A stretch of 27,641 bases of DNA, taken from assembly GCA_965656495.1 (NCBI GenBank), contig CBFHKU010000008.1:1-27641 (forward strand). Reading direction: 5' to 3'. The first letter of the stretch is position 1; every line of letters begins with the position of its first letter. The translations under genes and the position numbers were made by a program. Shown piece after piece: positions 3,227 to 27,641 of the stretch. Source of the DNA: Coraliomargaritaceae bacterium (lineage in GTDB: Bacteria; Verrucomicrobiota; Verrucomicrobiia; Opitutales; Coraliomargaritaceae). The notes beneath the pieces are model-generated. The model did not search any database, was not told where the DNA came from, and was given only the letters and a program-made list of their open reading frames with translations.

Positions 3227-3274
3227 AAGGTGGGAAGGTGGGAAAGTGGGAAAGTAGGAAAGTGTGAAGGTGGG
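3227..3274. repeat. 8-bp tandem repeat AA(G/A)GTGGG, 6 copies (imperfect)
   Basis: aaggtggg aaggtggg aaagtggg aaagtagg aaagtgtg aaggtggg; degenerate copies recur near 3689-3708. Confidence 0.85.
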
Positions 3275-3279
3275 ATCAG

Positions 3280-3313
3280 TCTTAATTTTATTCTTAATCC
3301 TAATCTTACTCTT
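3280..3313. repeat. 6-bp tandem repeat TCTTAA-like, about 5.5 copies
   Basis: tcttaa ttttat tcttaa tcctaa tcttac tctt. Confidence 0.7.
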
Positions 3314-3449
3314 GGGAACATCGAACATCCAATTAACAAACCACCAACCTCACAGTCTCTGCGTTAAAATTTCCAAGCTCTGTGCCTTTGCTCCTCAGCG
3401 TTTTTACTTCCAACCACACAGCGCGGCCCTGAGGCCAGCATAGCTGGCG

Positions 3450-3523
3450 ACCGCTAATAGGCGCTAATTTTCGCTAATCCTTAAAACAAAACTATTAGTG
3501 TTTATAAGCGAGGATTAGTGGTT
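3450..3523. repeat. Inward-facing inverted pair of 10-bp-periodic CGCTAAT triplets
   Basis: ccgctaat ag gcgctaat tt tcgctaat ... attagtg ttt ataagcg agg attagtg gtt. Confidence 0.8.
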
Positions 3524-3570
3524 CCGGCTCTGCCGTATTTTGTAACGCAGAGGAACAGAGGGTGGGATAT

Positions 3571-3634
3571 CGTGGAAGCGGCAATCCTGCCGCTTTGCTT
3601 GGGGCTGGAAAGCGACAAGAGTGTCGCTTCCACG
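3571..3634. repeat. GTRG-type REP doublet (REPIN-like)
   Basis: CGTGGAAGCGGCA-ATCC-TGCCGCTTT and an inverted partner whose reverse complement is CGTGGAAGCGACA-CTCT-TGTCGCTTT; each copy is a GTGG tetranucleotide plus a short palindrome. Confidence 0.75.
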
Positions 3635-3775
3635 CTTTTGCTTGTGGCTGAAACCTTGAAGGTTAATCACGAAATGCACGAAGGGGGTTAAGGTGTGAAT
3701 GTGTGAAGCTGTGCTGGAGAATATAATCCGTAGAATATCAATGACAAATCTACATCATACCCCTATCCAAAAGTT

Positions 3776-4558
3776 ATGAATTATCAATTAAGCGCAATTC
3801 TGGACGAAGCGAAAATCAAACGGGAGGGTCAGCTCAAGACCCTCAATCTGGCCATGCTTGCCTATGCAGGGATTGTAATACTCTTAGCCCTGCCTTCCGC
3901 GATTGCTGAAGTAACGGGGGCTTCGCCTGAAGTTCTTTTTGCGACCCAGTTGATTTTTGATTTCTTCCTGTCTCCTTTATTGACCCTGCCGCTTTTGGCA
4001 GGGATCTCGTGCCTGGGTCTAGCCCGGGCGCGTGAACAAATGATTCGGGTTGGTTCGATATTCGGGCACTATAATAAAATTTGGCCTTTATTCGGGTATA
4101 CGGTTTTATGTTGGTTATTCTTTTTTCTCCTTTTGGCGGGTGTCGCGATGATAACAGCCGTATCAGTATTAGCCGGTGATGCGGTTTTTCCTGTTGTCTT
4201 AACGGTCAGTGTACTTGCAGTTGTCTTATTCTCGGTTTACGTCGGCATCCTGCTTTCTTTTGCCGTGCTGCTCATCGTTGATCAGGATCTAGGCGTAATA
4301 GCCGCAATCAAACGCTCAATCGCGGCGGTTCGGCTCTCGGGTTCCTTCGCGCTGCTTTTCAAATATTACTTCATGTTTTTCCTGTGGCTAATCCTCGGTC
4401 TCTTCACTCTGGGTATCGCTTACTTCTGGATCTTTCCAAAATACACCATCGCATACGGCATCATCTACCGCAACCTGTTCGACGGCGATACCGTCATGCC
4501 AAAGTCGGTCGACGACCCACACCAAGGCCCCCTCGCGAAATATTCGCAGGCAAATTAA
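3776..4558 (+). CDS. Hypothetical multi-pass membrane protein (loosely DUF975/YciC-like)
   Basis: 260 aa with about 5-6 hydrophobic segments; D.DLGVIAAIKRS and LGLFTLGIAYFWIFP...IYRNL patterns. Confidence 0.75.
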   Translation: MNYQLSAILDEAKIKREGQLKTLNLAMLAYAGIVILLALPSAIAEVTGASPEVLFATQLIFDFFLSPLLTLPLLAGISCLGLARAREQMIRVGSIFGHYNKIWPLFGYTVLCWLFFFLLLAGVAMITAVSVLAGDAVFPVVLTVSVLAVVLFSVYVGILLSFAVLLIVDQDLGVIAAIKRSIAAVRLSGSFALLFKYYFMFFLWLILGLFTLGIAYFWIFPKYTIAYGIIYRNLFDGDTVMPKSVDDPHQGPLAKYSQAN

Positions 4559-4566
4559 TTGAAATC

Positions 4567-4636
4567 CCTCCGTGTCCTCTGAGTCTTTGTGGTGAACCCG
4601 ATATGAACTCACCACGGAGAAACAATGCGCACAGAG
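4567..4636. repeat. 70-bp hairpin repeat upstream of the GxxExxY gene
   Basis: Near-identical to 5111-5180; left arm CTCCGTGTCC...TTTGTGGTGA, 13-nt loop, right arm TCACCACGGAGA...CACAGAG. Confidence 0.92.
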
Positions 4637-4705
4637 GAATTGATGAAACTTTGAGCAAATGCATTATTGACAAAATGGTTTAAATAGCCCAAATAAGTAA
4701 AATAT

Positions 4706-5104
4706 ATGTCAGGTGGTTGTTTTAATGAGCAGGATTCTGTTAATAAGCTTTCCAAAGTTGTTATTGGGGCAGCAATTGAAGTGCATCAAGCTTTGGGACC
4801 TGGGTTATTGGAATCCACTTACCAACAATGTCTTAAGCATGAACTAAAGCTCAGGGGGGTATCAGTAAGATCAGAAGTTGAATTAGCGGTTTCTTATAAG
4901 GGTATGGCGTTAGACTGCGGTTATCGAATTGATTTTATTGTAGGTGAGTCACTTTTGTTGGAGTTAAAAAGTGTACGCAAAATTGAAGCTATTCACGAAG
5001 CCCAAATTTTGACTTACCTAAAGCTTGCTAAAATCAAAACAGGTTTACTTATGAATTTTAACGTCCCTGTTTTGAAGGATGGTATTAAGCGCTTTGTTAA
5101 TTAG
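4706..5104 (+). CDS. GxxExxY protein (PD-(D/E)xK nuclease superfamily)
   Basis: IGAAIEVHQALGPGLLESTY signature; RIDFIV...LLELKS catalytic D...ExK; HEAQILTYLK; GLLMNFN; 132 aa; AT-rich relative to core genes. Confidence 0.95.
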   Translation: MSGGCFNEQDSVNKLSKVVIGAAIEVHQALGPGLLESTYQQCLKHELKLRGVSVRSEVELAVSYKGMALDCGYRIDFIVGESLLLELKSVRKIEAIHEAQILTYLKLAKIKTGLLMNFNVPVLKDGIKRFVN

Positions 5105-5110
5105 ATAATC

Positions 5111-5484
5111 CCTCCGTGTCCTCTGAGTCTTTGTGGTGAACCAAATATGAACTCACCACGGAGACACAAAGCGCACAGAGAAAGTGTTTATGCTTTGATT
5201 CATTAATCAAAAAACCCTCCGTGTCCTTCGTGTCTTTGTGGTGAACCCAATATGAACTCACCTCGGAGACACGAAGCACACAGAGAAAGTGTTTATGCTC
5301 TGATTCATTAATCAAAAAAGCCTCCGTGTCCTTAGTGTCTTTGTGGTGAACCCAATATGAACTCACCGCGGAGACACGAAGCACACAGAGAAAGTGTTTA
5401 TGCTTTGATTCATTAATCAAAAAAGCCTCCGTGTCCTTAGTGTCTTTGTGGTGAACCCAATACGGAGACACGAGGCGCAAAGAG
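5111..5484. repeat. 105-bp tandem array of 70-bp hairpin plus 35-bp linker (3 full units and 1 deleted unit)
   Basis: Units start at 5111, 5216, 5321 and 5426. The linker contains a small hairpin TTTGATT-CATT-AATCAAA. The 4th unit lacks about 11 nt spanning the loop and right arm. Confidence 0.95.
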
Positions 5485-5493
5485 GCGGCAAAG

Positions 5494-5523
5494 AAAAAAC
5501 CGCTCCCTGAAGAGGAGCGGTTT
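5494..5523 (-). terminator. Intrinsic terminator downstream of tRNA-Arg
   Basis: Minus strand AAACCGCTCC-TCTTCAG-GGAGCGG followed by TTTTTT. Confidence 0.8.
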
Positions 5524-5528
5524 CAAAA

Positions 5529-5605
<77 letters not shown>

Positions 5606-8240: not shown

Positions 8241-8321
8241 AGGCTAACGGCGCCGCTGAAGTAAAGGATGGCGACCTGCACGAGCCCGATCATGAAACCG
8301 AGGAGGGCGCCGAGGCGTTCG
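8237..8321 (-). pseudogene. Displaced original 3' end of the DUF445 gene
   Basis: Reads ERLGALLGFMIGLVQVAILYFSGAVSL*. The first 16 residues match the DUF445 C-terminus, and its TAG overlaps the RluA TAG (CTAG at 8237-8240). Confidence 0.8.
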
Positions 8322-9446
8322 CAATTACTTCGAGGAAATATTCAGTCCTGGGTTTCTATTCTTTGGGTCTTTAGATAGTTAATAAATCTATCTTTGGGCT
8401 TACTGAATAGTTAATTACCAAGAGAATCTTCAGGGCCTACTATTATGGGAAGAGGGCCTACAAAGTAATCGCCGCCGATATATTCATCAATAACACCCGC
8501 ACTAGGCCGCCACTCATCTTTATAGATTTCTTTGCCTTTGCGATTTCTTTGAACGCCTCGGTGGAAGACACCATGTAATATTCCTTGAAGGATATTGATG
8601 GGGTCATCCCATCGGTGGCGTTCTTTAAGTGTTTTTCTACTGCTACTGCTGCTGCCAAAATAATAGCGGAGACCGAGGTAAGCCTGTTCGTAATCTTCTT
8701 CAGCATTTTGTACGGAAGCAAAGACACTGACTCCGTTTGCCGGAAGCGCGTATTCGAGATCGTATTGAATCGATTTAATATCATGCTTTGTTTGGGCGGT
8801 CAGGGTGAAGCTGAGATCATCGATAGGATAGTAGATACAGTAGAGTCCGCCAGAAAATCCTGTTTGGGAGCTGGATTCAAAGGAGACAGCTTTCTTATAT
8901 CGGATTTGATTCCAGCCTGCAGTTGAACCAAAGGTAAGGTTTTTGAGATAGTATTCACCTATACAGGATGCCCCATAACTTTTGAGCGCAGCGTCATGAA
9001 TAAAGCCGCCGTGGATTCCCAGGAGGCCTTTTTTGTGATCCCGCCAAAAAAATTGACTGCCCAAACCTTTAAATTCGTGAGCGTCTGTTTTTTGATACAA
9101 ACTATCAACCTGAATACCAAAGCTTTCTCCTATTGGAAAAGAAGCGCTGCCATCAATGGAGTACCCTTCATAGCTGTTGTAATTACCGTAAGTGCTGCTA
9201 ATTTTATAATTTAACTCTGAGACAGCTGTATTTCCAAAACTAAGCGCTTGGCTGAGGGTGATAGATATAACAAATAAAACAAATGCCTTATGCATGAGAG
9301 AAAAGAATTAATATGTAAAAATATGTTGTCAATTTCATATTTCAATTGTGCGTCCTTCGCGCATTGAAAATACCTAGCGTATAAGGCAAAAGAGCCCGAC
9401 CTGCACAAGCCCGATCATGAAACCGAGGAGGGCGCCGAGGCGTTCG
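8272..9446. mobile_element. Small AT-rich insertion bounded by 50-bp direct repeats (8272-8321 and 9397-9446); no integrase inside
   Basis: cgacctgcac(g/a)agcccgatcatgaaaccgaggagggcgccgaggcgttcg occurs twice, 1125 bp apart, with 1 mismatch. Confidence 0.8.
8411..9295 (-). CDS. Secreted protein, putative outer-membrane beta-barrel
   Basis: N-terminal signal peptide; alternating aromatic-rich strands (FGIQVD, FFWRD..KGLLG, GEYYL, LEY, LGLRYYFG) followed by LKERHRWDDP. Confidence 0.7.
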   Translation of the reverse strand: MHKAFVLFVISITLSQALSFGNTAVSELNYKISSTYGNYNSYEGYSIDGSASFPIGESFGIQVDSLYQKTDAHEFKGLGSQFFWRDHKKGLLGIHGGFIHDAALKSYGASCIGEYYLKNLTFGSTAGWNQIRYKKAVSFESSSQTGFSGGLYCIYYPIDDLSFTLTAQTKHDIKSIQYDLEYALPANGVSVFASVQNAEEDYEQAYLGLRYYFGSSSSSRKTLKERHRWDDPINILQGILHGVFHRGVQRNRKGKEIYKDEWRPSAGVIDEYIGGDYFVGPLPIIVGPEDSLGN

Positions 9447-14337: not shown

Positions 14338-14943
14338 CTATATCAAGTGAAGGATTGGATGTAGGATTTTCAGGCGTTGATTATTGGTCAGTTCAAAGAG
14401 GTCAAAGTTCTTGAGTTCGCGAAGGAGATTATCTTTTTCGGCAAAGATGGGTTTGTTGAAAATCTTTAAGTCAGATGGATTGAATCGTATATTGAAGGGG
14501 GCATCGCGATAGTTTGACTGGGTGAGCGCTTTAATATCACCGCCAATCTTTTTTATCTCACGCTGCATTTCTTTAAGCCAGCCCATGGATTTAGCAGTTT
14601 CGCTCACTTCTTTTATTTGGTCTTTGTTCAGGCATTCAATATTACGAATTTGTCCGACGTAGCGATAATACGGTCCGGTGCTCTCGCCCCGCGATTCGAT
14701 GGTATAAAGGATCGAATCGAATTTGCCTTCGCGTGTGTAGGAGCTTTGCTTGAGTTTGTGGACGCCCCGGATGAATCCGTATTGAAAGTTGTCCATGATC
14801 CAACTTTTTCTAAAAAGCCACTCGTCAAAGTGGAATCCGTGGCGGGCAAAAAAGCTTCGTTTATTCGTAAGCTTTGCAATACCAGAGGGATGTTCCCAGC
14901 CTTGATTGTTTTGTGTGATTCGGGCTACGTAGATGTCCTGCAT
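14338..14943 (-). CDS. Hypothetical AT-rich accessory protein
   Basis: 201-aa ATG ORF preceded by a very AT-rich upstream region; ARIT.N..GW..PSG...HGF..DEWLF...YGFI motif. Confidence 0.7.
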   Translation of the reverse strand: MQDIYVARITQNNQGWEHPSGIAKLTNKRSFFARHGFHFDEWLFRKSWIMDNFQYGFIRGVHKLKQSSYTREGKFDSILYTIESRGESTGPYYRYVGQIRNIECLNKDQIKEVSETAKSMGWLKEMQREIKKIGGDIKALTQSNYRDAPFNIRFNPSDLKIFNKPIFAEKDNLLRELKNFDLFELTNNQRLKILHPILHLI

Positions 14944-16920: not shown

Positions 16921-17006
16921 AACGCAAAGGTCTGCTGCTCTGTTTATTATTAACGCAGAGGAGCGAAGTAACTGAGTCATCCTTTGGTGCTTTGGATCTC
17001 TGTGTT
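16921..17006. repeat. Degenerate inward-facing AACGCAGAG-family repeats
   Basis: aacgcaaagg (16921), aacgcagaggagcgaagtaactgag (16952-16976) and inverted ctttggtgctttggatctctgtgtt (16982-17006). Confidence 0.65.
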
Positions 17007-21964: not shown

Positions 21965-21994
21965 AAGCCGTACTCTTTGGGGTACGGCTTTTTT
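21965..21994 (+). terminator. Intrinsic terminator after rplT
   Basis: AAGCCGTACTC-TTTG-GGGTACGGCTT followed by TTTT. Confidence 0.85.
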
Positions 21995-21995
21995 G

Positions 21996-22412
21996 TTTTA
22001 ACGCGGAGGGGTGGAGGAATATTTTAACGCAGAGGAGCGGAGAAGCGGAGTTTTGTGGGGTTGTTTTATTGAAACGCGGAGGAGCGGAGTAGCGGAGGGG
22101 GTATTTTAACGCAGAGGAGCGGAGTAACGGAGTTTGGAGGGGGTTGTTTTTATTATAATGCAGAGAAGAAGAGAATTTAAGGTAATTTTATTTTACTGCA
22201 TTAACGCCCAATAAAAATCTCTGCTCCTCCGCTCCTCTGCGTTAAAATATCCCTCCACCCCTCTGCGTTAACCCCCAAATAAAAAACCTCTGCTCCTCCG
22301 CTCCTCTGCGTTAAAATATCCCTCCACCCCTCTGCGTTAAAACCCAAATAAAAAATCTCCGTTCCTCCGCTTCTCTGCGTTTAAAAATAACTTAATTTCT
22401 CTGCGTTAAAAG
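21996..22412. repeat. Large inverted array of AACGC(A/G)GAG-GAGCGGAG repeats
   Basis: Right-pointing copies at about 22000, 22026, 22073, 22108 and 22157 (degenerate); six left-pointing CTCTGCGTT copies between 22235 and 22408; block 22219-22270 is duplicated 69 bp later. Confidence 0.92.
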
Positions 22413-22416
22413 ATAA

Positions 22417-22818
22417 TCAGGCAAGGTGCTCAAGGATCTCGACTTCGTAGCCATCGGGGTCGGTGATGAAGGCCATCTTTTTTCCGTCCACGAATTTCTC
22501 GCGCCAGTTGGCGGGCCAGAGTTGAACTGAGAGTCCTGCGGTCTCCAAGCCTTCGAGCATTTCGCAATAGGCGTTGAGGTCATCGACGCGGATGCAGGTA
22601 TGGACGAGGTCTTCGGGAAATTTAACTTCGAAGTCGGGGGAGTAGGTAAGCTCGAGTTTATGGTCGCTGCCGGGAATCGCGAGGTGGGCAAGTTGATTGC
22701 CGCTGGGCGATTTGTCGGTGCGACGCAGGACTTCAAAGCCGCAGGTGCGGCAATACCAGTCGATGGACTCTTCAAGGTTGGAAACGCGGATGCGGGTGTG
22801 GTCAAATGTAATGTGCAT
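22417..22818 (-). CDS. VOC/glyoxalase family protein (lactoylglutathione lyase-like)
   Basis: HTRIRVSNLEESIDWY...LELTY...HTCIRVDD...AFITDPDGYEVEILE. Confidence 0.9.
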   Translation of the reverse strand: MHITFDHTRIRVSNLEESIDWYCRTCGFEVLRRTDKSPSGNQLAHLAIPGSDHKLELTYSPDFEVKFPEDLVHTCIRVDDLNAYCEMLEGLETAGLSVQLWPANWREKFVDGKKMAFITDPDGYEVEILEHLA

Positions 22819-27478: not shown

Positions 27479-27641
27479 AAGTGGTTGGTTTAACGCGGAG
27501 GAGCAGAGGAGCGGAGTGGTTATTTTGTTTGAAACGCGGAGGAGCAGAGAAGCGGAGTGGTTATTTTGTTTGAAACGCGGAGGAGCAGAGGAGCGGAGTG
27601 GTTATTTTGTTTGAAACGCGGAGGAGCAGAGGAGCGGAGTG
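27464..27641. repeat. 41-bp tandem array of AACGCGGAG-GAGCAGAG-GAGCGGAG repeats (runs off the right edge)
   Basis: AACGC at 27492, 27533, 27574 and 27615, with constant linker TGGTTATTTTGTTTGA; a partial copy lies inside the last codons of the permease. Confidence 0.92.

Follow-up and report, generated by a model that had tools for sequence, protein, structure and literature searches.

The locus lies in a window of 27,641 nucleotides, the whole stretch of Coraliomargaritaceae DNA analyzed here, and occupies positions 4567–5484 between two host anchors. On its left is the gene for a DUF975-like membrane protein (3776–4558, plus strand; 30.9 bits, below the Pfam cut-off of 34.8); on its right, convergent and on the minus strand, a terminator-like hairpin (5496–5524) and a tRNA-Arg(ACG) (5529–5605) together span 5496–5605. 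A gene for a GxxExxY protein of 132 aa with a PD-(D/E)xK fold (4706–5104, plus strand) sits between two 70-bp hairpins, hairpin 0 (4567–4636) and its direct repeat, hairpin 1 (5111–5180), neither of which is assigned a strand. As the sequence-only reading had stated, the two are near-identical (66/70 positions, with no difference between their 28-bp left arms) and have a CTCTGAG variant in common, which lies in these left arms and is absent from the units at 5216, 5321, and 5426. Hairpin 0 is composed of a right-type arm (4567–4595), a joint (4596–4608), and a left-type arm (4609–4636), the last of which opens the gene-bearing arm–gene–arm unit (4609–5139, plus strand). Every arm of the locus, including the two of this unit, consists of an ACC tip and, behind it, three 7-bp words with a pitch of first 8 and then 9 bp. 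Three gene-less arm–linker–arm units follow on the plus strand (5153–5244, 5258–5349, and 5363–5454), the first of which is homologous to dispersed 85-bp units of the genome (see below). The predicted 105-bp period, 35-bp linkers, and 13-bp joints were borne out by the measured coordinates: Tandem Repeats Finder reported a 105-bp period with 3.4 copies and 95% matches over 5110–5462, linkers of 35 bp lie at 5181–5215, 5286–5320, and 5391–5425, and joints of 13 bp at 4596–4608, 5140–5152, 5245–5257, and 5350–5362. In the final unit (5426–5484), the joint is collapsed and the right arm short; the 3′ end of this last piece (5455–5484, plus strand) matches single-hairpin ends and an arm remnant in relatives (see below). 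The gene was also said to be flanked by 28-bp inverted arms like terminal inverted repeats (TIRs). The arms are present (4609–4636 and 5112–5139), but with a complementarity of just 19/28 they are imperfect TIRs at best. A CRISPR array was considered and rejected, since the three linkers are near-identical and there are, thus, no unique spacers.

Contigs covering the gene were present in 8/8 sequencing runs from five studies (one possibly the source), so the locus is not an assembly artefact. Seven contig pieces over the gene showed 0–2 differences, and one longer piece that included the host gene showed 39. Because no single contig of the eight runs spans the whole array, its copy number is without independent confirmation. 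Among the contigs of these runs, no joint skipping the gene was listed, and the upstream host gene had no match in the metagenome scan. No sigma-70-like promoter passed the promoter scan.

Against TIGR04256 (cut-off 35 bits), the ORF at 4706–5104 reached a score of 145 bits, and against PF13366 (cut-off 22 bits) one of 143.7 bits. With a GC content of 37.6% in a genome of 53.9%, it is indeed the AT-rich GxxExxY gene it had been taken for; its GC3 is 0.31, compared with 0.67–0.71 in two host genes. The predicted structure (pLDDT 94.9) shows a PD-(D/E)xK core, and the corresponding site is intact (E36, D76, E86, K88, and a Q100-x3-Y104 motif); across the family, no variation is seen at E36 and K88, and conservation is at least 90% at D76, Q100, and Y104. 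S16 and R129 occupy alignment columns whose residues covary with the word of the repeat. No homologue with a solved structure was found by sequence, and Foldseek returned no match at E ≤ 0.001. Comparison of folds yielded a list mostly made up of PD-(D/E)xK nucleases and headed by Cas4 SSO0001 (Z 7.7, rmsd 4.2, 100 residues), a middling score tied with those of restriction enzymes; fold likeness of this kind shows no function. The protein is a predicted DNA-cutting enzyme of the PD-(D/E)xK class, whose activity would be metal-dependent. PDDEXK_3 (GxxExxY) is given as a family of unknown function in the available part of one survey (PMC3424549). The search for relatives of the family, in which at least 7,998 were scored, contained proteins 82–97% identical to that of the locus. 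A near-identical gene copy at another site was found neither in 101 family genomes nor in the best 80 metagenome loci (highest identity 66%).

For comparison across the family, the best 80 of 185 confirmed scan loci, 109 of 171 matches (from 61 related genomes), and the five loci of this genome were combined, yielding 185 distinct proteins, 180 of which had sufficient flanking sequence. An inverted repeat scoring at least 14 spanned the gene in 142/180 loci, compared with 2/369 shifted windows, and in 1/340 random, crudely called genes of this genome; flanking inverted arms are, thus, general for GxxExxY loci, the first point on which the sequence-only reading was to be checked. When, after the addition of 69 metagenome loci, the nearest arms were scored over 230 loci, they faced inward at 121 and outward at 13, and none was detected at 20. 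The family-wide architecture is three 7-bp words at 8- to 10-bp pitch, and a strict pattern with a first pitch of 9 misses the present locus, where the first pitch is 8. Arms also follow the gene at the level of genomes. Two or more arms of the general pattern were present in 30/35 gene-bearing genomes that are at least 90% complete, compared with 2/18 gene-less ones, and in 14/15 compared with 1/10 when genomes were matched for size (1.6–2.7 Mb); in these counts, one sub-threshold match was scored absent and gene-adjacent arms were included, and the tests overstate the association because genomes are related. The number of arms was not linked to the number of genes in gene-bearing genomes (rho 0.25, p 0.12). 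Zero or one arm of the general pattern was found in 5/40 gene-bearing genomes.

Within 47 pairs of three-word arms (9+9 pitch), the bases between the words matched in 36.2% of cases, compared with 36.1% after shuffling of partners inside the same class; the words themselves matched in 97%, but had been selected by the pattern. Three bases outside the ACC tips paired slightly above chance (0.58–0.61 compared with 0.50–0.52). Target-site duplications of 2–8 bp were not above the shuffled level in 101 arm pairs, of which older copies may have lost them. The arms are non-palindromic, being three-word runs with an ACC tip. Because inter-word pairing is at chance and no target-site duplication was discernible, the arms look like arrays of protein-binding words; as far as sequence can tell, they look like neither hairpin RNAs nor classical transposon ends. 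No Rfam family matched the array at gathering thresholds, the only match in the window being the tRNA; CRISPR- and miRNA-type matches were discarded because their scores were far under the thresholds and the linkers are identical. Structured RNAs made from the array and bound by the protein had been offered as an alternative in the sequence-only reading. Such RNAs might be small; in another form of an RNA-level explanation, the arms would pair in a transcript and loop out the gene, comparable to the intervening sequences of 23S rRNA. Many cassettes do sit between co-oriented genes, the units fold (five hairpins folded as DNA gave z-scores of −1.9 to −4.3), and pairing of the three terminal bases is a little more frequent than chance. 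With inter-word bases at the shuffled rate in the 47 pairs, inner arms at the locus only 19/28 complementary, no Rfam family at threshold, and both arm orientations around genes (121/230 inward, 13 outward), however, a role as RNA is disfavored and appears very unlikely.

A word could be assigned for 136/185 proteins, 100 of which were left after those at least 75% identical had been dropped. On the tree of these 100 (a quick tree with many forks unresolved), the 12 word classes need 24 changes, compared with 63.6 when shuffled, and 0/200 shuffles were as low. Phyla are mixed within the clades, and it is the protein tree, rather than the host, that word type tracks; the covariation of arm type with protein clade that had been proposed as a check is, thus, observed. 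Residue 16 was the top single predictor of word position 5: threonine coincided with G in 34/35 cases, and another residue with A in 47/57. In 40 held-out loci (less than 85% identical to the training set), the corresponding figures were 15/15 and 23/25. Nearest-neighbor pairs that differ at residue 16 changed the base in 4/11 cases, always in the predicted direction, and pairs alike at this residue in 2/59. However, the nearest neighbor by whole protein predicted position 5 equally well (38/40 held-out loci), and an independent-pairs test, with just four pairs on supported branches, was not significant. Because of these two results, the residue-16 code is suggestive only: residue 16 may help to read word position 5, and its link to the base is not separated from shared ancestry. 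As a predictor, residue 129 had no advantage over columns 13, 112, and 114. The protein of the locus has Ser16, which predicts A at position 5, and agreement with the code is poor here: only about half of the words in the array have A, although it is commoner there than in the hairpins of relatives.

Members of the family were found in 8/72,556 plasmid records and in none of 50,697 phage records. Cassettes whose proteins are 80–100% identical often lie at unrelated sites, and those at 86–95% identity do so in some cases across phyla. Fifteen pairs of near-identical cassettes were aligned, 12 of which were neither integron-like nor within a larger shared block. In these, the end of DNA homology lies about 30 bp or less from the right arm tip in 12/12 pairs and close to the left tip in 9/12. 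L125 and L126, copies identical to each other but located apart in genome G057, have attC-like ends beyond their arms. What we take to be attC-like ends, recognized by eye, surround L122, L125, and L126; none was seen at the window locus. In L122, L125, L126, and L130, the GxxExxY gene and its arms lie inside such boundaries. Because L125 and L126 are identical and share these ends, integrons probably move some copies. This bears on the notion that the cassette is a passenger or regulates itself, the protein reading the words without moving them, the spread being due to transformation, integrons, other elements, or slippage during replication, and the protein–word coupling reflecting autoregulation or joint inheritance. 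Apart from the attC-like ends of the identical G057 copies, this notion is favored by the protein–word covariation not being separated from ancestry, the occurrence of arms in mosaic repeat clusters among other families, their survival in genomes without a family match, and the presence, between leuB and alaS of G006, of another gene family whose arms differ as well. We nevertheless regard it as unlikely, considering that the nuclease site is nearly invariant, that most near-identical pairs stop at the arm tips and have no attC-like flanks, and that arms are mostly absent from gene-less genomes.

The site was compared in six relatives from the same genus (G001–G006; the genome of the locus is G000). 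In G005 and G001, one gene-less hairpin lies between the same host gene and tRNA-Arg; its start matches hairpin 0 and its end the last arm of the array. The site is without a hairpin in G002, G004 has neither hairpin nor host gene, the contig of G003 terminates in an arm remnant, and in the closest relative, G006, whose host-gene product is 95% identical, the tRNA end is taken up by an island of unrelated sequence. Empty sites, sought as a further check, thus exist as gene-less single hairpins in two relatives, with none in three others. The island of G006 (L082:2280–3400) has several small ORFs in place of the array, from the host gene to tRNA-Arg, and in four sequencing runs a contig of a more divergent, G006-like type departs from the window sequence at 4560. 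The low GC3 of the gene (0.31) favors recent gain over ancient retention; because deletion between direct repeats also leaves one hairpin, we only infer the polarity of gain and loss. Few loci of the family (11/178) have the gene enclosed by a long direct repeat. Two genomes in which the family had no match, G001 and G003, still have arms.

In the genome of the locus as a whole, 27 arms of the same word class were found, compared with 0 in one order-3 Markov simulation, so this arm class is not due to chance. Six neighboring arm pairs face inward, five of them 84–89 bp long. The 31- to 33-nt spacers of dispersed pairs resemble the array linker (shuffle p 0.001–0.03 in 7/7 compared), which identifies arm–linker–arm as the dispersed unit, at about 85 bp, and agrees with the second of two earlier readings of the array, in which this was the gene-less miniature. 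The likeness of the linker to the inner ends of the cassette is weak (p about 0.01) and carries no weight in our reading. The genome has five intact GxxExxY genes that are 33–48% alike, and the other four each have their own word type nearby. Between metK and ahcY, it has an arm–gene–arm cassette; G005, G001, and G002 have no arms there, and G006 (96–97% DNA identity) has kept both arms and lost the gene at a short microhomology. Between leuB and alaS, the sole copy in G003 has lost internal sequence, G005 carries one at full length, and G001 retains a single arm remnant; in G000, one intact and two internally deleted cassettes stand in tandem (L300; G000:C4:74800–75900), the repeated unit taking in the ends of both host genes. 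The site within an ABC operon is empty in G001, G002, and G003, and G005 has a deleted remnant. Derivatives by internal deletion are, thus, represented by metK–ahcY of G006, leuB–alaS of G003, and a remnant on contig C6 of G000, and the comparisons at these three sites (metK–ahcY, leuB–alaS, and the ABC operon) indicate that miniatures arise in this way. Because the duplications at leuB–alaS extend into host genes, local amplification is not bounded by arms.

Several other features were observed in passing. At leuB–alaS of G006 (L315; G006:C33:14670–15270), a different small gene, helix-bundle-like by eye, lies between inverted runs of heptamers. At its end (27492–27641), the window enters a tandem array of 41-bp units with a second arm type, which runs on to G000:C8:28524, precedes another GxxExxY gene within the ABC operon, and overlaps, with its first arm word, the end of the upstream permease gene. 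Gene-less clusters of this second arm type also lie at 21986–22420, 16942–16993, and 3357–3561, and include 69-bp and 82-bp tandem runs in facing orientation. The region 3230–3700 is a mosaic repeat island with an octamer run (3230–3275), a REP-like inverted pair (3571–3634), and several arm word types; such islands recur genome-wide and vary among close relatives. Furthermore, a 59-bp direct repeat (92%; 8263–8321 and 9388–9446) flanks a low-GC ORF (8411–9295) that had no Pfam or NCBIfam match, which suggests that an insertion duplicated the end of a gene. A second low-GC ORF, of 201 aa and likewise without a match in Pfam or NCBIfam, lies at 14338–14943.

To our knowledge, no strand-transfer chemistry has been described for a hydrolytic nuclease of 132 aa, which counts against the protein being itself the transposase of a true cut-and-paste element with the arms as TIRs. 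The sharp boundaries at the arm tips, the derivatives with internal deletions, and the fact that TnsA, a PD-(D/E)xK protein, acts in transposition (PMC3424549, in the part available) would be in line with such an element; target duplications of 2–8 bp at the shuffled level in the 101 arm pairs, the absence of recent copies in the genome (33–48% identity), and duplications that run into host genes make it extremely unlikely. The original interpretation as an autonomous element with non-autonomous derivatives, therefore, survives only in its second half: deletion derivatives exist, but autonomy is unproven and behavior like that of classical TIRs or a classical transposon unsupported, because there is no target-site duplication, the fold is hydrolytic, the copies are only 33–48% alike, and the duplications reach host genes.

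The locus is best explained as a gene-plus-arms cassette within a locally expanded array of its own gene-less miniatures. As to how it arose, we lean toward a mechanism in which the nuclease would bind its words and nick nearby, and host repair would copy, expand, or refill the units. In duplex DNA, the protein would bind to the 7-bp words in its own arms, possibly with one subunit per word at the 8- to 10-bp pitch, and nicking might occur near the outer ACC end of the arms. Spread would then proceed via break repair and recombination, not via strand transfer, with host repair copying the units, expanding them in tandem, deleting them internally, or refilling gene-less ones. At this locus, the AT-rich cassette most likely recombined into a resident hairpin, which would have duplicated the hairpin on both sides of the gene, and the downstream unit would afterward have been amplified in tandem. 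Because the unit of gene and repeats is found again in many bacterial phyla, its repeat type tracking the protein, the enzyme likely recognizes its own repeats and spreads them, in what is apparently an undescribed kind of selfish DNA. More far-reaching, and held only tentatively, is the idea that GxxExxY is the engine of a widespread, transposase-free selfish DNA: a nuclease of 130 aa might read its periodic words via a simple residue-to-base code and cut beside them, and host repair might copy units with and without the gene into new intergenic sites, for which older gene-less copies, as at this locus, might also act as landing pads.

In the literature searched, which included few subscription journals, GxxExxY was mentioned incidentally in one paper, and no account of an association between GxxExxY and repeats was found. 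The layout resembles those of RAYT/REPIN and Ssn/NTS and is a member of neither family. RAYT is described, in the available parts of three sources, as an HUH tyrosine transposase acting on folded single-stranded DNA with a tetranucleotide tag (PMC3116915, PMC3733652, and PMC8266576). As in REPIN/RAYT, REPtrons, and TIRtrons, so far as these sources describe them, there are intergenic inverted doublets and ordered tandem clusters beside the gene, with one repeat type per enzyme type and divergent single-copy paralogues. In contrast, there is no HUH Y1 transposase (PF13366/TIGR04256 being the only match) and no GTAG/CGTC tag on a palindromic stem–loop, and one doublet usually encloses the gene. 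The analogy to RAYT/REP drawn earlier, therefore, applies to the dispersed doublets and the tandem cluster, not to the enzyme or the tag. With insertion sequences and MITEs, the system shares gene-less derivatives by internal deletion, and its unit may likewise be bounded by inverted ends; unlike insertion sequences, it has no target-site duplication, no DDE, HUH, serine, or tyrosine enzyme, imperfect ends, and no recent multicopy expansion in this genome. I-Ssp6803I is a homing endonuclease of the PD-(D/E)xK type, and I-Bth0305I is reportedly another. The GxxExxY protein is likewise a small member of this superfamily, and empty alleles exist at its orthologous site, but its ORF is free-standing, without intron or intein, each clade occupies many unrelated sites, and the sequence recognized appears to be the element's own arms. 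RecB/Cas4 nucleases have their motifs in the same order (E, D, ExK, QxxxY), as given in the part of PMC8610317 available, and Cas4 was both the top fold match and the source of weak profile matches; unlike in Cas4, there is no CRISPR locus and the four-cysteine iron–sulfur staple is not conserved.

Ssn, according to the available part of its description, is a GIY-YIG nuclease that cuts single-stranded DNA beside a hairpin and is associated with NTS/SRM repeats (PMC11893778). The likeness, as far as that part of the source goes, consists in a small single-domain nuclease gene with cognate repeats on both sides, gene-less repeats elsewhere, and many nuclease–repeat pairs across phyla; the differences are that GxxExxY is a PD-(D/E)xK protein without GIY-YIG and that its arms are periodic three-word arrays with unpaired bases between the words. 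A domesticated nuclease of this sort would cut single-stranded DNA beside the repeat and modulate transformation or recombination of the host, the spread of repeats being a side effect. The repeat–gene–repeat layout and the association at genome level, as described for ssnA/NTS in the same part of that source (PMC11893778), the Cas4/RecB-type nucleases with a QxxxY motif as nearest folds, and the few plasmid (8/72,556) and zero phage (of 50,697 records) matches argue for it. The fold other than GIY-YIG, the unpaired inter-word bases, and the rapid turnover of the gene between close relatives together with its deleted remnants, which looks more selfish than housekeeping, argue against it, and we consider it quite improbable.

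GxxExxY/PDDEXK_3 is a very common family, and the predicted substrate adjoins each gene; its function is, therefore, directly testable, with a specific prediction for residue 16. If the mechanism toward which we lean is true, RAYT/REP and Ssn/NTS would be joined by a third nuclease-plus-repeat system of independent origin, which would supply very small nucleases with naturally varied specificities and account for a large class of intergenic repeats so far unannotated in many phyla.
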